In this document: piece after piece, positions 4,551 through 26,420 of the stretch | Layout of the letters: every line of letters starts with the position of its first letter | How positions within the stretch are numbered: the first letter of the stretch is position 1 | Origin: Octopus vulgaris | Taxonomy: Eukaryota | Length of the DNA stretch: 64,000 bases | NCBI GenBank assembly: GCA_951406725.2 | Contig: OX597839.1 | Coordinates: 34,844,001 to 34,908,000 of the forward strand | Direction of reading: 5' to 3' | Made by a program: the position numbers and the translations under genes | The notes under the pieces: generated by a model | What the model saw: the letters and a program-made list of their open reading frames with translations, nothing else | The model's database searches: none | Told to the model about the DNA's origin: nothing

Positions 4551-4912
<362 letters not shown>

Positions 4913-5048
4913 AGATGTACTTGCATAGCGAGTGACTTGATCTGAGGTCGTGTGCTGGTAACGAAAGTAATTGCAGCGTGGAAGGTGTTTGTAAGCCATT
5001 TAAGAAACACACAAAAATCGTTAGATTCACTTCAACATTTAAGTTTAA

Positions 5049-5099
5049 TTTGTCAAAATATTTTCGTCGCTTTGAGACCGCGACCTGTTCACCGACAAA
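5049..5099 (-). ncRNA. Hammerhead-like motif with G3:C8 core swap (element about 4911-5125)
   Basis: UUUGUCG-GUGAACA-G-GUCGC(loop)GCGAC-GAAA-AUAU-UU-UGACAAA; second copy at 20459-20509. Confidence 0.6.
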
Positions 5100-5296
5100 A
5101 CTCCATGCTAAATGTGGCGGACACATAGGGGACGATTCTACTGTTACTTAAGAGAAAATTTGATTTTATTTCTCCCCTCCATCTATCTCTCTGACTCATA
5201 CACTGTTCGCTTCCCAGACATTTGTACATTACTGCAGATGCTTTATATGCACTTTTGACAAGTTTTGGTGCACCTGAGCACTGTATACGATAATTT

Positions 5297-5680
5297 CACT
5301 CTACTGGCACCGAAGTGCCATCAGCCGGGCCTGCCCGAGGTGCTGCCTGGACGACGAAATCGTCCTGGACGCATTCGTCCAGAGCCCGAGCATTGCTGAC
5401 CTCTGGGTTTATGTCGAACAGCTGCTGTCGCGTAGAGGACGGAACCGGCTATCAGCTGAATCCATAGTGAAGATTGCCCCGCCGACCTCCTTTGACAAGG
5501 AGGGCAAGGCAGTTTTTCTTTGTTAGTGGCTGTAGCGAAAGAGGTGATATGGTGGACCCGTTTGAAAGGGCTAAAGTCAGACACTTTCCTCTTTGACCAA
5601 GGCCACATCAACTTTTTCAAGTTCGTTTTAAAAAGGAAGATGAGAGTAGAAAGGCAAGTGTTGTCTCGTAGCAAATTCAT
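5297..5680 (+). mobile_element. L1/Tx1-clade LINE ORF2 C-terminal fragment (second copy 6347-6472)
   Basis: The second copy reads ACPRCCQDNEIVLHAFVQCPSIADLW, the CCHC zinc-knuckle typical of L1/Tx1 ORF2 ends. Confidence 0.65.
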
Positions 5681-5717
5681 GGTCAAGGGGAAGTAACTTC
5701 ATCTTTCAGGGGAGGCA

Positions 5718-6278
5718 AGGCAGTGGCTCTCATGGCTTCTGATCTTAACTGATTGGAAGTGTTATCGTGTACATTGTTTTGTCTTGGTTTAAAAGATGGG
5801 CTACAGCAAATATTCTGCTCAATACCACAGATTTGCTTGTCACTTGCTTGACCTTAAATAGTTGACCATGTCCCTTGGTGGCTGACGATATGTGCATCTC
5901 TGATCACGAGCAGAAGTAGTGGGGGAGCATCATAGCCATGTGTTGAGAGGGATTCTTTGGGGTTTGAATATTTCACCTCTGGAAACATGGGTGTTTCATT
6001 CAACATCCTTAAACAACCCTTATTCAGGGACCTTTTGAGCGGGATGGGCTTCTCGACCAGAAGAAATTTCTAACTAAACCCCACCTGCAAGGTCATGCAC
6101 TGTTTATCTTGATATGAGATCACCATGTCCCGCACATATGGTTGTGATGCATGTGCATGGTGTACCCTTATCAGACGGGTAGTTATGATGGGTATACTGG
6201 ACTTCGTATATTTTACCCCAGTGTCACTTTGATCGCATGCACTGCTCTCTCACTCAATAATAATAATAATAATAATTA
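5718..6278 (+). mobile_element. Non-autonomous retroelement with (AAT)n tail
   Basis: Ends CTCTCTCACTC(AAT)n; its 5' end recurs inverted at about 22128-22215. Confidence 0.55.
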
Positions 6279-6840
6279 ATTCGTTTATTAGTCACAAGGG
6301 CTGACAAAAGCAACAACAATATAAATACTGGTGGTGATGTGTAGCCACTCTACTGGCACGGAAGTGCCGTCAGCCGGGCCTGCCCGAGGTGCTGCCAGGA
6401 CAACGAAATCGTTCTGCACGCATTCGTCCAGTGCCCGAGTATTGCTGACCTCTGGGTTTATGTCGAACAGCTTTGTGATGTGAGTGATGTGTAGGCCGAC
6501 AAAAATTAATTATAACATAAAGGGACAAAACACAGGACGTAAGTTACAAAGGGTTTTTGTCCGTTTGAAAATCCGCGTAAAAACCAGTAAAACCAACGAA
6601 AATATTTAACAATGGAAAACGTCCCAATAGGGTTGGGGGGAGCCTGGTCAAAAAGGAGGGTATGAACGGACCAATTTTGAGGACACACCCGTAAAAAAAA
6701 AAAAAAGGAAATATAAAAGGAGAAAGGGACTCTCTACCCTCCTTTTGACCAGGCTTGCTGATGACCACTCGGTTCAAAGTCTCTCTTGACCAGAAATGGC
6801 CTGAACTCTTTGCATGAACACCCTTTCTGTACATAACTCC

Positions 6841-7263
6841 GGCGATCTTTCGTCTCTAGTAGACCTTTCCGTCGATTTCCGTAAAAAATTTTTTTTTTTT
6901 TTACATATAGGCTTCCGGGAACTTTTGAAGTAATATACATACATATACACATACACCGAGTAAAAATTTCAGTTATCTCTCTCTTTCACACATTACTCTC
7001 TGTCTCTTCACACACACTAACAGAAGCACTTCACTTACACAACATACTGTCTGTCTCCCACACCCCATCAAACACACACACACACACATGTACATCAATG
7101 CTTCACATGCACGGTAACTTCAAAAGAACTGCCCTCGTCATACAATCGCTTTCTCTTAGTCTCTTTCGCTCTCATTACTTCAAAAGTTCCCGCAAGCCCA
7201 TATGTAAAAAAAAATTTTTTTACGGAAATCGACGGAAAGGTCTACTAGAGACGAAAGATTGCC
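6841..7263. mobile_element. MITE with about 90-bp TIRs and 9-bp TSD CATAACTCC (Mutator- or Merlin-type)
   Basis: TIR GGCGATCTTTCGTCTCTAGTAGACC...; exact TSD at 6832-6840 and 7264-7272. Confidence 0.9.
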
Positions 7264-7399
7264 CATAACTCCATGTCCCCCTATATGGCCTTGCTTTTTG
7301 CTTTTTGAGTCAAATTAACTTAACTTAGGCTCCCGTGGCTCTTATGGGTTTCTCCACGAGTAACCTTTTGAAGTGCCCATCAGAGAGAGAGTGACCATC

Positions 7400-9212
7400 G
7401 AGGGGGGAGAGGGAGAGAGTTAGGCACAGAGAGAGAGAAAAGAGAGAGAGGGGAGAGGGAGAGAGTTAGGCACAGAGAGAGAGGGGGGAGAGGGAGAGAG
7501 TTAGGCACAGAGAGAGAGAAAAGAAAGAGAGGGGAGAGGGAGAGAGTTAGGCACAGAGAGAGAGAAAAGAGAGAGAGGGGAGAGGGAGAGAGTTAAGCAC
7601 AGAGAGAGAGAAAAGAGAGAGAGGGGAGAGGGAGAGAGTTAGGCAAAGAGAGAGAGGGGAGAGGGAGAGAGTTAGGCACAGAGAGAGAGAAAAGAAAGAG
7701 AGGGGAGAGGGAGAGAGTTAGGCACAGAGAGTGAGAGAGAGAGAAGGAGGCAGGATATGAGAGAGAGAGAGAGAAGGAGGCAGGATATGTGTGAGAGAGA
7801 GAGAGAGAGAGACAGCGGTATCCAGAGAGAGAAAGGAGGCAGTGTAACAGAGAGGGAGAGGGAACCAGAGAGAGAGAGATTATGGTTTGTGTGCGTCAGC
7901 CATTAAAAAGCAGACGATATTTGGAAGTTTTTTCATTGTCAATTATATTCGTTGGTTTTACTGTTTTTTGTTACACGGATCTTCAAACGGATAAAATCCC
8001 TTTGTAACTTTCGTCCTGTGTTTTGTCCCTTTATGTTATAATTAATTTTTGTCAGCCCTGTGGCTTAAAAACGAATTAATTATCATTAGTAATAATATTA
8101 TTATTATTATTTTATTTTTCGATTGTCAAAATTACCTCCCCTGAAAGATGAAGTTACTTCCCCTTGACCACAACTGTTTAATTGAAAGCATTCTTTTTTT
8201 TAAATTACGCTCGAAGCCCATTGCACACACACATCTGTGTGTCTTTGTGCATTTGTCCCCCACCACCACTTAGAGAGAGAAGGAGGCAGGATAAGAGAGA
8301 GAGAGAGACAAAGAGAGAGGTGTCCAGAGAGAAAGAGAGGAAAACATAGGGAGGGGTAGAAAGGTAGGCAGAGAGAGAAAAAGGAGGCAAGGAAACAGAG
8401 AGAGAGAACCAGAGAAATAAAAAAGAGAGAGGGGAGAGGGAGAGAGTTAGGCAGAGAGAGAGACAGCGGTATCCAGAGAGAGAGAGAAGGGATGTAGGGT
8501 AACAGAGAGAGGGAGTAAGCAGAGAGAAGGAGGCAGGGCAACACAAAAAGATAGAGAGGATGACAAAGAGGAAGAGAGAGCTGGAAATAGAGAACGGAGG
8601 TTGGGTGACAGAGAGACAGAAGAAGATAGAGAGAGAGAGAGAAGTAGGCTGAGAGATGGGGACAGAGAAGAGGGAGAAAGCTAGACAGAGAGAGAGAGAG
8701 AGAAGTAAATGAGGAGCAACAGGTTTGAGATCCGAATGAATGAGCAGAAGAGATTAAAAATATATATTTCTTTTACTCTTTTACTTGTTTCAGTCATTCG
8801 ACTGCGGCGATGCTGGAGCATCGCCTTTAGTCGAACAAATCGACCCCGGGGAAGAGAGAGAGGGAAACAGGGAAGGGGAGAAAGCTAGGCAGAGTATCAG
8901 AGAGAGAGGGGAGAAGGAGAGTGTTAGGCACAGAGAGAGAGAGAGAAGGAGGCAGGATATGTGAGAGAAGAGAGAGACAGCGGTTTCCAGAGAGAGAGAG
9001 TGAAAGGAGGCAGGGTAACAGAGAGAGAGGGGAGAGGGTGAGAGTTAGGCACAGAGAGTGAGAAAGAGAGAAGGAGGCAGGATATGAGAGAGAGAGAGAC
9101 AGCGGTATCCAGAGAGAGAGTGAAAGGAGGCAGTGTAACAGAGAGAGAGAGAGGGAACGAGAGAGAGAGAGATTATGGTTTGCGTGCGTCAGCCATTAAA
9201 AAGCAGACGATA
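7400..9212. repeat. GA-rich degenerate tandem repeat (GAGAGGGAGAGAGTTAGGCACAGAGAG...) in two blocks
   Basis: Blocks 7400-7920 and 8270-9212; both end GATTATGGTTTG(T/C)GTGCGTCAGCCATTAAAAAGCAGACGATA. Confidence 0.85.
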
Positions 9213-9562
9213 GTGACTCATTCTGTTTGTCATATCAAAAGAGTCATCTAATTAAATACTTAATGATCGTGTGTGTGTGTGTGTGTGCTGTTATTTATTT
9301 GATAAATGCTACAAGTGTCATTACTGTTTCCATTTTCTCTCTCACACACACGTGTGGGGGTGCAGTGTGTGTGTGTGTGTGTGTGTGGTTATTGATGAAA
9401 ATGTTTCTAGATTCCATTAAAACTTTTTCAAAAATACATATTTTGTAACTTTTTCATCCACACAATGTATTTGTAGGGAGAGAGAGAGAGAGAGAGAGAG
9501 ATAGACGTTATGAATATATCTTTCTGTCTGTCTGTCTCTCTCTCTCTATATATATATATATA

Positions 9563-9662
9563 CTAGCAGTATCGCCCGGCGTTGCTCGGGTTTGTAAGGG
9601 AAATAACTATAAAGCATTTTTAGAGAGTTATAGCCAAAATACAGCAAAAAATGCATTAAAAA
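9563..9662 (-). mobile_element. Helitron-like 3' end
   Basis: CTAG terminus with hairpin CCCGAGCAACGCCGGG; same as the 3' end of 62487-62995. Confidence 0.75.
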
Positions 9663-10775
9663 TGTTTCAGTCCTTTGACTGCGGCCATACTGGAGCACCG
9701 CTTTTAATCGAGCAACTCGACCCCGGGACATATTCTTTTATAAGCCCAGTACTTATTCTATCGGTCTCTTTTGCCGAATCGCTAAGTAACAGGGACATAA
9801 ACACACCAGCATCGGTTGTCAAGCAATGCCAGGGGGACAAACACACACACGCATATATATATATACACATATATACGACGGGCTTCTTTCAGTTTCCGTC
9901 TTCCAAATCCACTCACAAGGCTTTGGTTGGCCCGAGGCTATAGTAGAAGACACTTGCCCAAGGTGCCACGCAGTGGGACTGAACCCGGAACCATGTGGTT
10001 GGTAAACAAATTACTTACCACACAGCCACTCCTCCATTATATATATATATAATATATACAGCAGGAGTGGCTGTGTGGTAAGTAGCTTGCTTACAAACCA
10101 CATGGTTCCAGGCTCAGTCCCACTGCGTGGCACCTTGGGCAAGTGTCTTCTATAGCTTTGGGCCGACCAAAGACTTCTGAGTGGATTTGCTAGACGGAAA
10201 CTGAAAGAAGCCCATCGTATATACATATGTATATATGTAAGTATGTATGTATTTGTGTGTGTCTGTGTTTGTCTCCCATCCATTGCTTGACAACCAATGC
10301 TGGTGTGTTTACGTCCCTGTAACTTGGCAGTTCAGCAAAAAAGACTGATAGAATAAGCACTAGGCTTAAAAGGAAATAAGTCCTGGGGTCGATTTGTTCG
10401 ACTAAAGGTGGTGCTCCAGCATGGCCGCAGTCAAATGACTGAAACCAGTAAAAGAATAAAAGAAATATACTTATATATAATTACTCTTTTACCCGTTTCA
10501 GTCATTTGACTGTGGCCATGCTGGAGCAGCGCCTTTAGTTGAACAAATTGACCCCAGGACTTATTCTTTGTAAGCCCAGTACTTATTCTATTGATCTCTT
10601 TTGCCAAATTGATATGTTACGGGGACGCAAACACACCAACATCGGTTGTCAAGTGATGGAGAGAGGACAAACACACACACACATATATATATATATATAT
10701 GTATATATATGACAGGCTTCTTTCAGTTTCCGTCTACCAAATCCACTCAGAAGGCTTTGATCAGCCCAAGGCTAT
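9663..10775. mobile_element. Three S1 SINEs in alternating orientation (-,+,-)
   Basis: Copies at 9663-10034 (-), 10059-10463 (+) and 10480-10775 (-). Confidence 0.9.
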
Positions 10776-11494
10776 AATGTCACTCCGAATTTTGATGTAG
10801 ACTTTTTTTCTTCTGGACCAAATCTAAATTTTTTGCCACATTATAGCTAGGGTCCTGTCCTCTTCAAAAATGTGAATGGTTTTCCATTTGGTTAAGAACT
10901 GAATTAGCAACAAAGCTCTGAAAAGATGAAGCGTGGGAGTAAATTGCAGCCTTAAGAATATTATTTAACCACTGCCGTAGTTGAATGATTAAATAAAACA
11001 AATGGTTTATACTCACACTTTTACTCGTTTCAGTCATTTGACTATGGCCATGCTGGAGCAACGCCTTTTGTCGAGTAAATCGGCCCTAGGACTTATTATT
11101 TGTAAGCCTAGTACTTATTCTATCGGTCTCTTTTGCTGAACCGCTAAGTGACAGGGACGTAAACATACCACCATCGGTTGTCAAGCGATGTTGGGGGTGA
11201 CAAACATTTTTTTGACATTTTATACAAAGGGTACTCATTATAAATTCAGTGTATAATATTCTAACACAGAATATATTTAATTAATGATATATATATATAT
11301 ATATTTTCAGCAAAAATTTAGATTCAAATGAATATGGTACTTAATTTAGATGCACCAGAATTCTGTATGGTGTTATCCATAAAATTCCATGGGGTGATTA
11401 TAATCAAAATAAGCAACAAGAATGACAAGAATAAAATGATGTAGTACGAAACGATTGTACCAAATTACCAGAGTCATTCTTGTTGCTTATTTTG

Positions 11495-11529
<35 letters not shown>

Positions 11530-11559
11530 GGCATTGTATGTGTCTGTGTGTGTGTATGT

Positions 11560-12190
11560 CATCATCATCATCATCATCATTTAACGTCCGCTTTCCATGC
11601 TAGCATGGGTTGGACGGTTCAACTGGGGTCTGGGGAGCCCGAAGGCTGCACCAGTCCTGTCAGATCTGGCAGTGTTTCTACAGCTGGATGCCCTTCCTAA
11701 CGCCAACCACTCCGAGAGTGTAGTGGGTGATTTTATGTGCCACCGACACAGGTGCCAGACGAGGCTGGCAAACGGCCACGATCGGATGGTGTTTGTTACG
11801 TGCCCACAGCACGGAGGCCAGTCGATGCGGTACTGGCTACGGCCATGTTCGGATGGTTTTCTTGTGTGCCACGTGCCACCGGCACTGGTACCACAAAGAT
11901 ACAAATTCCATTGATGTTCATCAATTTTGATTTGTTTTGATTTTCACTTGCCTCAACAGGTCTTCACAAGTGTCACAAGAAGGAAGGTAAGCACAGGTGG
12001 ACTGACTACGTCCCAGGTAGGGGCCACGGGTTATGGCCTGACTAGTCTTGCCGGGTCTTAGGATGGTGTTTTTATGTGCCACCGACATAGGTGCCAGATG
12101 AGGCTGGCGAACGGCCACGATCGGATGGTGTTTGTTACGTGCCCACAGCACGGAGGCCAGTCGATGCGGTACTGGCTACGGCCACGTTTG
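11560..12190 (-). mobile_element. Non-autonomous RTE-like element with (TGA)n tail and internal GTGGCAC repeats
   Basis: Tail GCATGGAAAGCGGACGTTAAA(TGA)n and motif GGCGTTAGGAAGGGCATCCAGC; other copies at 12920-13160, 27630-28318, 36057-36430 and 40400-40750. Confidence 0.7.
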
Positions 12191-12199
12191 GATATATAT

Positions 12200-12236
<37 letters not shown>

Positions 12237-12919
12237 TGACTACGATTGACGACACCCCACCCACTAAACCCCCCCCCCCCCCACCGTTCTTTCAGCACCC
12301 CCAATTACCTTCTCTCCTAAGACTATTCACATATATATGGATGTTGGCATATGTGTGTGTGTGTACATATATGTATACGAGTGCATATACGTATTTGTAT
12401 GTGAGTGTGTGTGCAACGGTGTATGTACATGTGTATGTGAAAGCGTGCATACATGTGTATGTGTATAGGTGTACATGTTTTTGTATGTGTATATATATAT
12501 GTGTGTGTATATGTATGTGTATGTATATGTATGTATTTATAGATATATAAGTATGTATGTGTATGTATATGTATGTGTGTATGTGTATATGTGCATATGT
12601 GTGTATATATATGTGTGTGTATGTATTAGTGTATGTGAGTGTGTACACGGATATATATTTATGTGTAGGTATATGCATGTGTATATGTTTATGGATGTGT
12701 ATATGTACACATATATATATGTGTATAAATGTAAATATGAATATACGTATGTATATATGTATGTGTATTTACATATGTATATATCTTTATATATATATAG
12801 ATGTAAATATGGGTTTGGATATGGATATATATTTGTATGTGCTTATTTGCGTGGATCTATGTGTTTGTATGTATGTATGTATAGGTGTATATGTATATAT
12901 ATGTACGCTTGTGTGTTTT

Positions 12920-13155
12920 ATGTAACACCATCCGAGCGTGGCCGTTCGCCAGCCTCGTCTGGCACCTGTGTCGGTGGCACATAAAATCACCCACTACACT
13001 CTCGGAGTGGTTGGCGTTAGGAAGGGCATCCAGCTGTAGAAACACTGCCACATCTGACAGGCCTGGTGCAGCCTTCGGGCTCCCCAGACCCCAGTTGAAC
13101 CGTCCAACCCATGCTAGCATGGAAAGCGGACGTTAAATGATGATGATGATGATGA

Positions 13156-13160
<5 letters not shown>
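12920..13160 (+). mobile_element. Same RTE-like family, inverted relative to the 11560 copy
   Basis: Near-identical reverse complement of 11565-11800. Confidence 0.8.
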
Positions 13161-13219
<59 letters not shown>

Positions 13220-14267
13220 ATGTGTATCTGTATGTATATGTACATGTACGCGTATATGTTTGTGTAAGTATGGGTATTTGCATGTATATGTATTTATTAT
13301 TTGTGTATGCATGTATGTCTGCAACACCTATCTGTGTTCGGTTTGTCCTTACACAGAGGCCATCCGGATTCCCGTTTGCGCCGTGAACAGGAATTAATCT
13401 TCTCTCTTCGCTCTTATACGCCATTTGGTCTCAACTCTCCCCCCTCCTCATCTAACCCCCTCTCCCCCTCCTCACCTATCCTTTCTCCCCCCGACCCCCA
13501 CTTCTTCAGTCCTTCATCCTTTCACCCCTACTCCCCTTCCCTTCTTCCCTCTTTCTCCCTCCCTCTTCCTCTTCCCTCTGCTCCCTCACTCCCTCTCTCC
13601 CCCTCTCCCTCTTTCCTCCTTCATCCCTCTCCTCCCCTTCCTTCTCCCCATCCTCTCCTCTTCACCCTCCCCTCCCCCTCTTCTTCCCCTCCCCTTCTCC
13701 CCCCTCTTCTCCCCTCCCCTCTTCTCCTCACTACACCACATGACTTTACACATCACATCACATATGATGTGCCATACTAATACACACACCAACTAATACA
13801 TACTAATACGTACTAATACATACTAGTACATACTAATACTTACACCAACCCTATACATACACACGTCCAGACCCCGCATACGCACTTATACTCTCTCACA
13901 CACACACACACACACCTATACATACCAATACGTACTAATACATACTAATACATACTAATACATACACCAACCCCATACATACGCACGTCCAGACCAATCC
14001 CACGCACTGATACTCTCTCATACACACACACACACACACACACACCCTTATACATACTAATACATACACCAACCCTATACATACACATCCAGACCCCTCC
14101 CACGCACTTTTAGCTGGTCCCTCAACCCTATTATCTCCCCTTATTTCGCTCTCGCGTCTCATGTTTGATCTTTGACCTCTGGCCGAAATCAGATCGCCAT
14201 GTTGATTCGTTAGCTACTGCACGCATTTTTTTCTCTCCTTCTTTCTGTGTTTTTCTCTCTCTGTGTA

Positions 14268-14305
14268 TCTTTCTGTTGAAGAGCGTAGGCTCGAAACGTT
14301 AAAGA
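14268..14305 (+). ncRNA. Minimal hammerhead-like motif with A6U core variant (element about 14100-14405)
   Basis: UCUUU-CUGUUGA-A-GAGC(GUAG)GCUC-GAAA-C-GUU-AAAGA; relatives at 61086-61120 (+) and 35343-35382 (-). Confidence 0.5.
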
Positions 14306-14425
14306 CTTGTTTTATTTATATTTCCTGAGCGCCATACTAATACAATTGTTCGTTTGTTTTCCACCTGCCTTCGTCTTTTGTTTATTTTCATAAAGCTTCC
14401 CGTTATATATATATATATATGGGTA

Positions 14426-14945
14426 TATCATCATCATCATCATTGTTCGACCGTGGTCGAGACAATGGAATTTACCATGTTGCGCCAGACTTCACGGTCC
14501 ATCATAGCATTACGGAGGTCCTGTTGCTGGATGCCTGTATCCCTGGAGATTACATCAGGGTAGGAGAGTGTGCGCCCTCTGGTATTGCGAGTAGATGGCT
14601 TCCAGAGGAGAAGAGTAGAAATTACTTCTTTTTCAGCTCTACAACAATGTCCAGCAAACTGGACTCTCCTACCTTTCACAAGAGATGACACAGGTGGTAG
14701 TTTCCCATATATTTGCATTTTGGTTGGATGGCGCCTCCACGAGAGATTTTGAGCTCTCATAAGGAGGCGAGTGTAGGTTCCATCCAACCGCCTCTCAAGC
14801 TTCTTTGATAACGTCCAGGTTTCTGAGCCATATAGTAGGATTGGTTCGACTGTGGCTTTGAAGATTTCAATTTTGAAGTCTCTACTTAGATTTGATGACC
14901 AGATCTTATGCATGTCATTACAGGCTGACCAGGCCATATCCTTTC
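14426..14945 (-). mobile_element. RTE-clade LINE 3' fragment (RT C-terminus) with (TGA)n tail
   Basis: ORF 14440-14937 contains VEPILLYGSETWTL...GHC; 5'-truncated; embedded in TA repeats. Confidence 0.9.
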
Positions 14946-15680
14946 TATATACATGGGTATATATATGTATATGTATATGTATATATATATATATGTGTAT
15001 ATGTATATGTATGTGTGTATATGTATGGACTTGTAGATTTTTTTATATATGTATATATATATATGTGTGCGTGTATGTGCGTAGATATGCGTATGTGTAT
15101 TAGTATGTGCATGTGCTTATATATATGTATGTATATATATAGATATATATGGATGTATGTGTATGTAGGTATGTATATGATGGGCGTAAGTATATATGTG
15201 TATGTATATGTAGGTATATACGTATGTGTATGTGTATATATATACATATATATGTATATATATATATATGGACTTGTAGATTTCTGTATGTGTATATATA
15301 TATGTGTATGTGTATGTGTGTAGATATGTATTTGTATGTGCGTATACGTATGTGTATGTACGCGCATGTATGTATATATGTGTGTAGGTACGTATATGTA
15401 GGTATGCTTTTACGTACATGTGTATGCATGCATGTGTGCATATATGTATTTATAAGCGTATGGATGCGTATGTATGTTTATATGCACAAATGTCTGTATA
15501 TAGGCATATGCGTTTATATATGCGGGCAGATGTTTATGTGTGTTTATGTGTACTGAAGTATGTTTATATATGTGGTTTTGTGTGTACATAGTTATGTATA
15601 TGTTTATGTGAAAGTGGGTACATTTATGTATGTATGAATATGTGTATTTGTGTGTGTGTATGTATGTGTATACATATATA

Positions 15681-15731
<51 letters not shown>

Positions 15732-15785
15732 GTGAATTGAAGAAATGGAGTTGAACGAAGATTGAACAGAAATCGTTTTATTGCA

Positions 15786-15865
15786 TTCTACACGTGTTTC
15801 GAAAGGCACAATTTACCAAATTCCGATTGAATAAGGAGACCATATTGTGTCTTTCTCTTCAGGAA
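15786..15865 (-). ncRNA. Type I hammerhead ribozyme motif
   Basis: UUC-CUGAAGA-GAAAGACACAAU...AUUGUGCCUUUC-GAAA-C-ACGU-GUA-GAA; 12-bp stem II with one mismatch; palindromic stem III. Confidence 0.75.
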
Positions 15866-16296
15866 GAAATAGGAAATCCGTTGGAAAAAACAAAAACAGA
15901 ACAGAGGCGGAGCAAAACAAATCGCCTCTGTCCCCCTAGCTTTTCCGTTTACATTACTATGAACGGATGCACTGAAGAAGCACGGACATTTGGATTGCAT
16001 ATGTAATTCTCTTGTTAAGGCTGAAACCGAGGTATGCATTTAATTCTGTTTTTTATATAAATTTTCATCTGTCATGCCCGCCAAAATTGGTTCTGGTGTT
16101 CGCTGTATTTTTCCTCTAGAGAATTTCCTTGTAGTTTGACCGTTGATGGTCTATTTCTAGCATATGGCCGACTCCCTAGCAGTAAGCCCTGCCAATATAC
16201 ACATATATTAGAATTTTCTCTGACTCCTCAGATTTTTGTATGCTGGACTACTGGTTTTAAATTGATATTAAAATTTATATTAATTTATCTCCCTCA

Positions 16297-16362
<66 letters not shown>

Positions 16363-16391
16363 TTACACATATATACATGTATATATATATA

Positions 16392-16703
16392 TCCACCGTG
16401 ACCACCGTGAACGATCAGGCTATCAGATGTTGTTACACATCGCTGGTCACAATGCACTTCGCATTGTTTTTTAGCCTTTAGATGACGCCACCCCACTGGC
16501 TAAGCAAGCAGGCCAACAGTAGAAAGAGTGAGAGAAAGTTGTGGCGAAAGTGTACAGCAGGGATCGCCACCAACCCCTGCCAGAGCCTCGTGAAGCTTTA
16601 GGTGTTTGCGCTCAATAAACACTCACAACGCCCGGTCTGGGAATCGAAACCGCGATCCTACGACCGCGAGACACTGCCCTAACCACTGGGCCATTGTGCC
16701 TCC
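16392..16703 (-). mobile_element. tRNA-Arg-derived SINE, tail type A (OR-like)
   Basis: Head GGAGGC(A/G)CAATGGCCCAGTGGTTAGGGCAG...CTCGCGG...GGTTTCGATTCCC; same tail as 39992-40270. Confidence 0.8.
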
Positions 16704-17279
16704 ACACACACACACATATATATATATTTACATGTTTATGTGTGTGTGTGTGTGTGTGAATGTTTGTTTGTGTGTGTGTGTGTGTGTGTGAGAGCATTTC
16801 ACTGTCTCTACCTGTCTGGCGAGTGATGCGAACTGAGACCCTGGCCCTTGACCCAGTTCCTTTCAGCAACTCGGTGGCATTGTGCCAGCGGGCCATGTCA
16901 TATGAGTGCGTCAAATGTTTAAGACTCTTCACAATAGAATGGCCTAGTAAGGACAAACATAAACAAAATGGGTTTCTGGCGGGCTTTTCCTTTTATCATC
17001 ATTGCCTTCTTAAACGGTTTCTTTGTCTCACCCACGCTATAACTGTTATGTAATCATATAAATTCTTTCATTCTTTTACTTGTTTCAGTCATTTGACTGT
17101 GGCCATGCTGGAGCAGTAACTCGAAGAGTTTTAGTTCACTGGAGCATCTACCTCCATTGCTGGCATGGTGATCTCGATAACGGAAGCTATCAACTATTTT
17201 AGGTGTCCCCCTTGAAGCACAGTGCCAGAAGCATTGTGTCCAGTGGTGGCTCATAGATAAAATTAGTTGGGGTGTTATG

Positions 17280-17910
17280 GTTGTGAGCTGGCAGAAACGT
17301 TAGCATGCCGGGTAAAATACTTTTTGGTATTTCGTCTGCCGCTGCGTTCTGAGTTCAAATTCCGCCAAGGTTGACTTTGTCTTTCATCCTTTCGGGGTCG
17401 ATAAATTAAGTACCAGTTACGCACTGGGGCTGATGTAGCCGACTTAATCCGTTTGTCTGTCCTTGTTTGTCCTCTCTGTGTTTAGCCCCTTGTGGGTAGT
17501 AAAGAAATAGGTAATTCATCTGTCTTTACGTTCTGAGTTCAAATTCTGCCAAGGTCGACTTTACCTTTTATCCTTTCATGGTCAATAAATTAAGTACCAG
17601 TTGTGTACTGGAGTCAGTCTAATCGACTGGCTTTCTCTCCAAAAATTTCAGGCCTTGTGCCTAGAGAAGAAAAGAATATTTTAGTATTAAGAAGATGGTG
17701 AGCTGGCAGAAATGTTAGCACGCCGGGCGAAATGCTTAGTGGTATTTCATCTGTCTTGACATTCTGAGTTCAAACTCTGCTGAGGTCAACTTTGCCTTTC
17801 ATCCTTTCGAGGTCGATAAATTAAGTACCAGTTGCATACTGGGGTCAAGTGAATTAACTGTCTCCTTTCCCAAAAATTTTGAGTCATGTGATTAGAGTAG
17901 AAAAAAAAAG
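17280..17910 (+). mobile_element. Three tandem tRNA-SINE copies with a Nin/Deu-like middle domain
   Basis: Repeated GCCTTTCATCCTTTCGGGGTCGATAAATTAAGTACC; another copy at 58950-59189 (-). Confidence 0.75.
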
Positions 17911-17983
17911 ATAAAATTATTCGGGGTGCTGCTTCAGAAAATGTTTAGCCATTGGTTTAATTTTGTGTAAAAAGAAACAAACA

Positions 17984-18318
17984 TAAGTAAAAAAAACTAT
18001 GTACGTTTCATAGCTACAATTAAATTCGAATTACAATTAAATTTAAATTCAGTTTAAAATTATAGTCAATCTTCAGGTTAACTATAAAAGTTAAATAAAT
18101 AAGCAAATACAGTTAAACAATATTTATTTGAAAATAAATAAAATAATAATTTTTCTTGTAGAAAAAACACCATTAACTAAATTTGAAACTTAAAACATTA
18201 GGTTTAATTCCTACAACACATTTATTATGTTAATATATAATATTTCAATTGTATTTAAATTTAATTGAAACTTGAATTTAATTGTAGCCATGAAACATAC
18301 GTAGTTTTTTTTACTTAT
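17984..18318. mobile_element. AT-rich MITE with about 80-bp TIRs
   Basis: ATAAGTAAAAAAAACTATGTACGTTTCATAGCTACAATTAAATTC...GAATTTAATTGTAGCCATGAAACATACGTAGTTTTTTTACTTAT. Confidence 0.7.
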
Positions 18319-18469
18319 TATATATTGATCATTCATTTTTATACTTTTTGAGATCTAGTTATATGTTTTATAAAAATATATTTTTTTTTATTTATGATTT
18401 GGTTTATGCCTATCATTGTTTGAATTGCATAATAGTGGTTTTTTTCTGTAATTTATATATATATATATA

Positions 18470-18887
18470 TGCGCAGGAGTGGCTGTGTGGTAAGTAGCTT
18501 GCTAACCAACCACATGGTTCCGGGTTCAGTCCCACTGTGTGGCACCTTGGGCAAGTGTCTTCTGCTATAGACCCGGGCCGACCAATGCCTTGTGAGTGGA
18601 TTTGGTAGACGGAAACTGAAAGAAGCCCGTCGTATATATGTATATATATATATGAGTGTGTGTATGTGTTTGTGTTTGTGTGTCTGTGTTTGTCCCCCTA
18701 GCATTGCTTGACAACCGATGCTGGTGTGTTCACGTCCCCCGTCACTTAGCGGTTCGGCAAAAGAGACCGATAGAATAAGTACTGGGCTTACAAAGAATAA
18801 GTCCCGGAGTCGATTTGCTCGACTAAAAAAGGTGGTGCTCCAGCATGGCCGCAGTCAAATGACTGAAACAAGTAAAAGAGTAAAAGA

Positions 18888-18888
<1 letters not shown>
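18470..18888 (+). mobile_element. Full-length S1 SINE
   Basis: Head GCGCAGGAGTGGCTGTGTGGTAAG...GGTTCAGTCCC, CORE-like CCTTGGGCAAGTG, central TA/TG run, tail (TAAAAGAG)n. More than 20 copies or fragments in the window (e.g. 24288-24684, 51470-51873, 53477-53845, 58038-58448). Confidence 0.9.
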
Positions 18889-18943
<55 letters not shown>

Positions 18944-19579
18944 ATATATATGTGTGTATGTATGTATATAATTTCAAGGGCAAGCCTGAATTTGATAATT
19001 CTCTCTTTGTTTAATCTCTGTTCGTTTTGTCTGTCCCGTCCTTTCTCTTGCTGTGAAGTTAGTTCACTTCTCTTCTGGTCAGCCATTGCACTGGTTCACA
19101 TGAAACTTTTATCTCCCTGTTTTTCTCTTTCCTTCATTCTCGTTCTCATGTTATATATTATTGTTTGTCTATTGTGTTGCAGCAATGAGAATATGTACAT
19201 ACACACACACATACATATATATATACTCTTTTACTCTTTTATTTGTTTCAGTCATTTGACTGCGGCCATGCTGGAGCACCGCCTTCAGTCGAGCAAATCG
19301 ACCCCGGGACTTATTCTTTGTAAGCACAGTACTTACTTGACTTTGTTGTCTTATTTTATCTAACACACACACACAGTCACACACATACATTTATTTATAT
19401 ATATATATTTTTTATTTTGACTACACATGCATAAGCACTGGGGAACTGCAGTACTCCCTATTTCTACTCGATATTATTCAATATAATGAGTCCTTCTTTC
19501 TTTATACTTGCACATTATATAACCCTTAAGCTTAATGTCAGTAACCATCCCCTAGTTTATGAAAAAAATACAGTTCCAG

Positions 19580-20400
19580 CGATGCAGTGCTTCACTTTTG
19601 TGCTCATGCTCACATGTCTGAGATAGGAAGCTGCACACTAGGAAGAGAGAGTACTGTTGTTAACGCAGTAGGGTCAGTTGGGCACAGTCTGTGAGAAAAA
19701 CCACACCATAACACAATTCATTCTGCCATAAATTTGAAAGCAACATGCTGTACTACTTTGCATTTGTGCCAGAAGCTCTGATACGAACATTTCGGAGTGC
19801 TTGGGCGTCAATCTGAGGACATGTACCAAGAGTGATAAAAATCAAACATCCAGTCAACATCATGGTGTTTGGAGTGATCACTAGTGATGGTGACGTTATG
19901 CCTCCACTCATCTTCCCACATGGCCTCAGGCTCAACACGGAGGCCTACATCAAGTACCTGGAGGAGGTGGTGCTACTCTGGGTAAAGAGGGTGGCTGCTG
20001 GAAGACCTTAATGTGTGGCAACAGGACTCATGCCACACAAGCAGGAGAACCCAGGAATGGCTTTCAGACAATTTCTGCGACCACATCACCCCTAACATCT
20101 GGCCACCCGACTCCCCAGACTGCAACCCCCTTGATTATTATGTGTGGGGCGCAGTTGAGCGAGAAACCAACAAAACTTGTAACAGCAAAGATGAACTGAA
20201 GGCAAGGATTATGGCAGCATTCGCCAACTTAAATAAGGAGACTGTCCTGAAGAATTGCAGAAGATTCCGAAGTCGTCTGGAGGCCGTGGTTGAAGCCAAC
20301 GGCGATTTTATTGAATAAATTTACTTTTTATTATTTCAAGATATTTTTATGTAATTTTGGTAAATATATCTGTTAAAATGAGATGTCAGTGTTATTTTCA
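19580..20400 (+). pseudogene. Degenerate maT/DD37D-type Tc1-mariner transposase
   Basis: VMVFG-like motif near 19860, then WQQDS..HT...WPPDSPDCNPLDYYVWG (ORF 20013-20318). D-D spacing is 35, or 37 if the usual AP after QQDS was deleted. Confidence 0.8.
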
Positions 20401-20458
20401 TTTTTACATATACATATACATATATATATATATATATATCTTAGATGCAGCACAAAGC

Positions 20459-20509
20459 TTTGTCAGTGAACAGGTTGCGGTCTGAAAGCGCCGAAAATAT
20501 TTTGACAAA
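20459..20509 (+). ncRNA. Hammerhead-like motif with G3:C8 core swap, copy 2
   Basis: UUUGUCA-GUGAACA-G-GUUGC(loop)GCGCC-GAAA-AUAU-UU-UGACAAA; perfect 7-bp stem I. Confidence 0.6.
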
Positions 20510-20567
20510 TTAAATTTAAATGTTGAAGTGAATCTAACGGTTTTTGTGTATTTCTTAAATGGCTTAT

Positions 20568-20617
<50 letters not shown>

Positions 20618-20797
20618 GTAAACCAATTTCAACAGATTTCACCCAAATTTGACGTTGATATTACTTAGTTTGGTTTGAAATAAAGAATTTGATTAGCTTA
20701 ATAATCGTAACTTAATCCCGGGGAAAGCCAGATTATACTGCTAGTATATATATATAATATATGTGTATATGGGTGTGTGTGTATATATATATATGTG

Positions 20798-25900: not shown

Positions 25901-26420
25901 AAGTGCCTACTTTAGCACTCCCTGCAAATTAGAAGCAAAACAATTGAATAGTTCTCTCCAATGTACATTTACTCACTCTCCTATGCTTCTTGCTGTTTCC
26001 CCTACGTATGTCGTTGTCTTGTTACTGCATCGTCCCTCTATACATCTTATACTAGAATTTAATCCCCTGTGTTCTTGTTCGGCGTGTTGGTACAGAATCG
26101 ATGAGTTTTTACCTTCCTTGAGTTCTCTCCAATTTTCATTTACCCGCTCTCCTATGCTTCTTGCCGTTTCCCCTACGTATGATAATCTCATCTCTCTGTT
26201 GGAATTTTGCAAGCATCCACAGCATGTTATGGCATAAATTAAATTCTAGGAATTGCAAGAGAAATTTTCTTTCATTTTGAAAAAGTGTGCATCCCATAAT
26301 TTGGAATTGCAAGCCTTCAGTTGATACAGACAGGTGCTGCAGTTTGGTTTACCATATTTTGTAACCATGAGGTTGGATAATCGTTTGAAAACCTTTACCA
26401 AACTTAGAATATTCTTCCAA
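25900..26420 (-). mobile_element. Penelope-like GIY-YIG endonuclease relic with internal duplication
   Basis: YAITCCGC...YVGETARSIGER (YVGETARSIGE occurs twice) and LYQHAEQEH. Confidence 0.75.

Follow-up and report, generated by a model that had tools for sequence, protein, structure and literature searches.

Two hammerhead motifs with a G3:C8 core

The window analysed here, a stretch of 64,000 nt from Octopus vulgaris (contig OX597839.1, positions 34,844,001 to 34,908,000 of the forward strand), holds two copies of a short repeat, each of which carries a minimal type I hammerhead motif with the core GUGAACA, that is, with G3 and C8 in place of the C3 and G8 of the CUGANGA consensus. The copies are probably pieces of the pseudo-long terminal repeat (pseudo-LTR) of a young, endonuclease-carrying Penelope-like element, whose G3:C8 hammerhead is likely to cleave slowly and only with a second copy or a protein of the element; we give this reading a probability of about 0.68. 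The features concerned are as follows.

4908..5109, minus strand: copy 1, a short piece of a Penelope pseudo-LTR that has the longer 3' end (with tail) and is followed by a (TA)n run; 89% identity to reference unit positions 54-253
5049..5099, minus strand: minimal type I hammerhead of copy 1; G3 at 5092, C8 at 5087, U17, extra G after A9, 5-bp stem II, AAUAUU stem III; predicted cut between 5056 and 5055
4908..4999, minus strand: first ~30 codons of the reverse transcriptase (RT)/GIY-YIG open reading frame (ORF) in copy 1, start codon at 4999; the in-frame run from unit to ORF is seen in L165, L166 and L187
about 4968-4908, minus strand: the 'tail' in copy 1, the region between two 3' end sites
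20439..20573, plus strand: copy 2, a pseudo-LTR fragment, 87% identical to positions 44-177 of the reference unit; it begins 4 nt ahead of the A of AGATG (20443), the common 5' end, and a (CA)n run cuts it short on the 3' side
20459..20509, plus strand: minimal type I hammerhead of copy 2; G3 at 20466, C8 at 20471; predicted cut between 20502 and 20503; ORF start codon at 20559

The core GUGAACA, GAAA and AAUAUU can be read in both copies at these coordinates, just as the original prediction had placed them. Its stems needed small corrections: stem I of copy 1 (UUUGUCG/UGACAAA) contains one G-U pair, stem II of copy 2 (GUUGC/GCGCC) contains one mismatch, and the extra G between A9 and G10.1 in both copies had gone unmentioned. 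The family motif has U4, G5, A6, A9, G12, A13, A14, A15.1 and U16.1 together with three stems, an extra base after A9, G10.1:C11.1, a palindromic stem III and an N-U-H site. The C3/G8 identity of CUGANGA is absent, 63 of 66 sampled copies having G3 and 64 of 69 having C8; Watson-Crick pairing at 3:8 is retained in the family, as G:C. Judged by its sequence, the motif is a genuine minimal type I hammerhead fold in which both position 3 and position 8 differ naturally from the consensus and for which catalysis is predicted, and the expectation that CUGANGA searches would miss it is borne out.

A scan of the whole window that permitted any Watson-Crick 3:8 pair returned copies 1 and 2 plus one canonical site at 15972. 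Against shuffled sequences, the two window copies show no gain in folding (z -1.66 and -0.32), unlike a copy from the young subfamily (z -4.26, 0 of 200 shuffles). Rfam gave no hammerhead match in the window at E<=1, nor in four further loci at E<=0.001, and since one of these four has a canonical core the miss is not specific to G3:C8. No consistent tertiary pairing of loop II with the sequences flanking stem I was apparent by eye.

Pattern counts over the 2.8 Gb genome, with the reversed pattern as control, show that the motif does not occur by chance: a 35-nt core pattern has 2,565 exact matches and its reversed control has 0. A downstream 29-mer has at least 9,152 matches (reversed control 0), and a longer 5' variant of the unit has 980 at <=1 mismatch. 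At the 30 best-matching loci the unit is ~210 nt long; its copies share one 5' end but stop at either of two 3' ends, and many have an inverted partner. At least two copies are present in 28 of 66 sampled loci. Contigs from 4 of 20 listed runs, none of which is catalogued as RNA, cover the motif and bear four organism codes, and no alternative letter reaches 10% or more at positions 3 and 8.

The host element

Upstream of the longer variant lie a microsatellite-rich spacer and then a GIY-YIG coding stretch (L009 and others), which, used as a query, gave 150 scored matches, many equal in score, with open frames of up to 1,025 aa. The 1,025-aa frame, in L152, has RT motifs including YVDD, a CxxxCxxC linker and, as its C-terminal GIY-YIG domain, a PF01541 match at E 1.8e-5. 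Pfam returned no RT match in this frame, and the RT assignment rests on the motifs and on homologs named as reverse-transcriptase-domain proteins. By eye, P0001 has a CCHH motif with two cysteines within GIY-YIG, as defined in PMC8557442, and its linker, CQSNCAVC, is of the CX2-5CxxC type. By the definitions in that paper, the predicted protein fits an endonuclease-carrying Penelope-like element of Neptune or Nematis type; the quick tree, which was built without named reference elements, does not separate the two.

Among 23 loci with the 5' part of the ORF, several pass directly from the hammerhead unit into the ORF, the start codon of which lies 56 nt after the predicted cut. L187 and L188 have a pseudo-LTR on either side of the ORF, with hammerheads 5.0 and 4.3 kb apart, respectively, and the frames are broken in both. 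L152 has an inverted partner of 1.78 kb, with the tail at one end only. Partial tandems that make up pseudo-LTRs, 5'-truncated inverted partners and an optional tail are traits of endonuclease-carrying Penelope-like elements, and the family agrees with them. One subfamily is young: over 1,540 nt, identity to L153 is 97.9-98.4% in all 11 of the other long copies. The repeat family had been correctly proposed; its host class, a Penelope-like retrotransposon, of a kind already known to carry such motifs, had not been recognised.

Two hand-picked 9-kb loci, inspected for the master, held only Helitron-like carriers; the master was found through the longer 5' variant. A Pfam GIY-YIG search returned other Penelope-type families, the G3:C8 family not being among them.

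Two other arrangements of the repeat were seen. In L037, L048, L049, L051, L052, L053 and L062, one inverted family pair has been captured and re-amplified by a larger element, these loci being 96-98% identical; the end of the capturing element, a hairpin plus CTAG, has what we take to be a resemblance to a Helitron 3' end. L178:1-1330 (G000:C28 near 4.995 Mb) is a head-to-tail array in which at least eight short units follow one another, the G3:C8 motif and a (TA)n spacer being present in each; it resembles an incipient retrozyme, and L176 is similar.

Copy ends and the insertion template

Copy ends were sampled with the downstream 29-mer, the ribozyme not being required, at 70 loci from the first 100 listed of the 9,152 matches. 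The sample is confined to the first 33 Mb of contig C1 and comprises 94 copies, among which are inverted partners and a small number of duplicates borne by a different element. Some 14 listed places, mostly with a known intact motif, were omitted, so that the sample is biased against intact copies.

Of the 94 copies, 39 begin at -6 to +3 relative to the A of AGATG and 82 reach 5' of the predicted cut (+59), three of the 94 extending far upstream. The 3' ends fall at two sites ~60 nt apart (54/94 and 34/94), which lie ~30 and ~90 nt inside the ORF, and the common 5' end is ~23 nt before G3. A TA run, the (TA)n target feature, flanks the 3' side in 54 of the 94. Because copies pass through the cut site and none starts there, the inserted RNA is uncut at the hammerhead, and this holds for a capped start and a splice acceptor alike. 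The preceding base is G in 10 of the 20 copies that begin at AGATG, and long copies have C or T at that position, which agrees with a capped start whose copying leaves an additional G. Copying of the cap can supply such a base. The AGATG end also reads like a splice acceptor, and in Drosophila Penelope the intron ends at helix I (PMC4209133).

Pairing at positions 3 and 8

The closest autonomous relative is a family, here called S, with 57% protein identity and open frames of 1,312 aa, which is sister to the G3:C8 family in the quick tree (support of 99 in the Shimodaira-Hasegawa-like approximate likelihood ratio test, SH-aLRT). Its hammerhead, in the same place, combines C3:G8 with C9, the extra G and U17, and all three stems carry compensatory changes. 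At a greater distance, metagenome relatives show C3:G8 (L223, L227) or U3:A8 (L224, L225), so that G3:C8 is the derived state. U3:A8 is found in a 781-aa family and in other more distant Penelope-type families. A3:U8 is found in a Penelope-type family (L083:2040-2090, L097) with 177 genome matches, 99 of the first 100 listed being A3:U8; here the hammerhead has a 2-bp stem II and an ACCGGU stem III and lies 290 nt after the GIY-YIG ORF. Across the Penelope-type families of this genome, all four Watson-Crick pairs occur at 3:8.

When positions 3 and 8 were left free, a scan of 30 GIY-YIG flanks from the same genome gave 16 matches, from only about four families, and 16/16 were paired; ten metagenome relatives gave four matches, three of them paired, and 150 shuffles gave one match. 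All of 18 aligned motifs are paired at 3:8 (C:G 7, U:A 7, G:C 3, A:U 1) and H17 is never G. The covariation score for 3:8 over these 18 rows, two of which are partly misaligned, is 0.738, against 0.227 when shuffled and at most 0.173 when slid, so covariation at this pair does extend across families. Such pairing supports selection on the 3:8 pair, and a working fold is likely to be still under selection. The original suggestion of selection for catalysis thus survives as far as the pair is concerned, but selection on a fold does not establish catalysis, and the RNA from which the copies derive was uncut.

U17, which the G3:C8 family and family S have in common, may have eased the swap, since in engineered hammerheads a G3-C8 core works better when position 17 is not C (PMC3884650, where the data are not shown). 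Core variants are also seen in young or related elements: C9 in family S and L224 (L224:2490-2541), C13 in L078 and L084, and U15.1:A16.1 in L223:4966-5017, L362:1130-1178 being a further locus of this group.

Inside the G3:C8 family, G3 without C8 has 477 matches (T 58, G 25 and A 17 among the first 100 listed); single C8 changes are at about background level and genomic copies decay neutrally. Fixation among copies therefore reflects the master sequence and cannot serve as the sign of selection for which it had been taken. Differences among master lineages carry more weight. Subfamily-level change, defined as a minor state in at least 20% of the 94 copies, occurs at 16 sites: none is among the 42 of the stems and core, loop II has 4 out of 8 (Fisher p 3e-4) and all other positions 12 out of 128 (p 0.03), although the four loop II sites may be fewer than four events. 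The stems and core are conserved in this sense. C11.1, which is in a CpG, varies in 16%, and A1.3 is changed to G in 9%, with a U-G pair kept. A search for copies with neither G3 nor C8, with no pairing rule, gave 28 matches: 22 decayed family copies, 11 paired and 11 unpaired at 3:8, and six from older related families, all paired (five C:G, one U:A). The counts for G and A among the first 100 listed leave a G3:G8 intermediate subfamily unsupported, and a C3:G8 subfamily inside the family comes down to one copy (L388) in the 28 double variants, the other five C3:G8 matches being related families.

A possible role for cleavage

In the mechanism we favour, reverse transcription would start at the two ORF-internal sites and uncut RNA would be copied to its 5' end, at a capped start or a splice acceptor, giving thousands of fragments of 150-210 nt. 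Cleavage would act on read-through or tandem transcripts with two pseudo-LTRs, 4.3-5.0 kb apart, the AAUAUU palindromes of which may pair to form stem III. It would not be needed for each insertion, yet would be important enough to the master lineages for the 3:8 pair to be maintained. A number of observations weigh against this. Stem III is all A-U, the AAUAUU duplex contributing a mere -0.2 kcal/mol, and when two copies were folded together the minimum-energy structure was not the active dimer. None of the 94 copies begins at +58 to +63, around the cut, and three begin at +54 to +57. Some cores, with C9 in family S and C13 in another family, tolerate changes expected to slow cleavage. A hammerhead was not found in 14 of the 30 GIY-YIG flanks, some of them short, or in six of the ten metagenome relatives, one motif visible by eye being missed by the scan. 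Finally, the 18 aligned rows are related, and six were chosen by a scan that required 3:8 pairing.

Several of these points would suit a fold, 3:8 contact included, that is kept as a structural or protein-binding RNA element, one that hardly cleaves and might, for instance, present the site at which reverse transcription starts. Copies derived from uncut RNA and a weak stem III are what it would lead one to expect. Catalytic mutants of PAc, the Poseidon element of Anolis carolinensis, have no effect on insertion, inserting normally in vitro, and no PAc RNA-sequencing ends lie at the cut (Frangieh 2024, PMC11167929); PMC4209133 gives a very low activity and itself leaves room for other functions. 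However, G12, A13, A14, the N-U-H site and 3:8 pairing are all kept, G at position 17 is avoided throughout the alignment, and the 3:8 pair is a contact of the active conformation (PMC3884650), so that purely structural retention seems unlikely. A dead relic, in which G3 and C8 drifted separately into the master copy and pair by coincidence, draws some support from the mismatched intermediate that two transversions require, from the neutral decay of genomic copies and from the 11 unpaired among 22 within-family double variants. It is very improbable nonetheless, given that all six out-of-family matches were paired though the search had no pairing rule, that the 42 stem and core sites are free of subfamily-level change, and that four pair types occur across families.

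It is hard to credit that the short copies are non-autonomous retrozymes that spread through self-cleaved circular RNA. The eight or more head-to-tail units of L178, with the G3:C8 motif in each, would suit such a mode, as would the proposed origin of retrozymes from Penelope pseudo-LTRs (bioRxiv 10.64898/2026.07.22.740005), but the copy ends are the 5' start of the element and two ORF-internal sites and not the cut site, the unit is collinear with the autonomous element, and most copies are single or in inverted pairs.

A slow, assisted hammerhead in the pseudo-LTR of a Penelope-like element remains the preferred reading. A broader proposal, that young Penelope-type families carry working hammerheads with all four 3:8 pairs, and that G3:C8 and A3:U8 are the first natural active examples, is tentative and stands at rather less than even odds; if it is true, CUGANGA-based searches would overlook a considerable part of the ribozymes in animal retrotransposons. 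Ribozyme searches should permit any pair at 3:8. That a set of young sister elements maintains the 3:8 contact with four different pairs is natural evidence for selection on the active fold, and these elements supply ready-made wild-type and revertant pairs. Copy ends on a genome scale show an uncut insertion template and match one in vitro study, which narrows the role of the hammerhead to the processing or regulation of transcripts. The stronger finding combines four-way covariation across families in one genome with copy ends from uncut templates.

Other repeats in the window

The remaining features of the window are listed here.

15964-16042, plus strand: third hammerhead, in a repeat at ~15640-16390; canonical C3:G8, long stem II, GUA site
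20715-20745, plus strand, 140 nt after copy 2: hairpin, then CTAG and a TA run; presumably akin to a Helitron 3' end
25950-26260, minus strand: rearranged fragment of the GIY-YIG region of family S, 89-92% identity
8769-58450, both strands: abundant repeat resembling a short interspersed nuclear element, at least 12 copies
2644-2887: near-perfect inverted repeat of 244 nt, which draws spurious microRNA matches
55726-56840: tandem array with a 28-nt repeat unit

The repeat of the third hammerhead is young (731 first-look candidates, 40 of which were scored at 95-99%, with several inverted pairs), and no Penelope ORF was found in seven of its loci.

Comparison with known systems

Minimal type I hammerheads in Penelope pseudo-LTRs were described by Cervera and de la Pena in 2014 (PMC4209133). 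The octopus motifs resemble them in their pseudo-LTR location, the extra nucleotide between 9 and 10.1, G10.1:C11.1, the short palindromic stem III, the common U17, and the prevalence of dispersed single copies, with nearby copies on opposite strands. By our own count, the 56 representative motifs of that paper, the search for which began from C3:G8, comprise 53 C3:G8, two U3:A8 and one U3/G8; G3:C8 is absent from them, as is A3:U8, and the extra nucleotide is G here but H in their consensus. U17 is present in 24 of the 56 (again our count) and UUU is listed for Crassostrea gigas, so the UUU triplet is not unusual here, contrary to the first view of it.

Natural U3:A8 hammerheads, known from Perreault 2011 (PMC3088659, which in its available part names only U3:A8 as natural 3:8 covariation) and from Schistosoma Cercyon elements (PMC4209133), likewise show compensatory change at the 3:8 pair. 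U3:A8 is reached by two transitions, whereas the G3:C8 and A3:U8 of this genome involve transversions. C3G/G8C is given as an engineered rescue in PMC8495972, and it partly restores cleavage by PAc (PMC11167929).

PAc is a close parallel. Its reverse transcription in vitro starts from two ORF-internal sites and its hammerhead needs protein (PMC11167929), and it shares with the octopus family a hammerhead at the pseudo-LTR-ORF junction, two internal 3' end sites that make a tail, and an uncut insertion template. However, C3:G8 is the natural core of PAc, the ORF of which begins within the ribozyme, whereas the octopus family is naturally G3:C8, with the ORF start beyond the cut, a tail of ~60 nt and a protein with a CxxxCxxC linker. 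Non-LTR retrozymes (PMC7229834; bioRxiv 10.64898/2026.07.22.740005) also have a type I hammerhead in short repeats, and one tandem array is seen here, but the octopus family has an autonomous ORF, is dispersed and has copy ends off the cut site. Non-coding head-to-tail arrays with a hammerhead in each unit, by which such retrozymes are defined, are represented by one clear case (L178) among the loci viewed.

The literature searched, which also covers available parts of PMC6155905, PMC7229834, PMC6765202, PMC8782182, PMC6962438 and PMC1636495 and excludes the large survey of Penelope hammerhead variants (Lunse 2017), holds no report of natural G3:C8 or A3:U8 and none of octopus Penelope hammerheads. 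Penelope hammerheads, natural U3:A8 and engineered G3:C8 are thus known already; what is new is a derived, natural G3:C8 in a young Penelope-like element.

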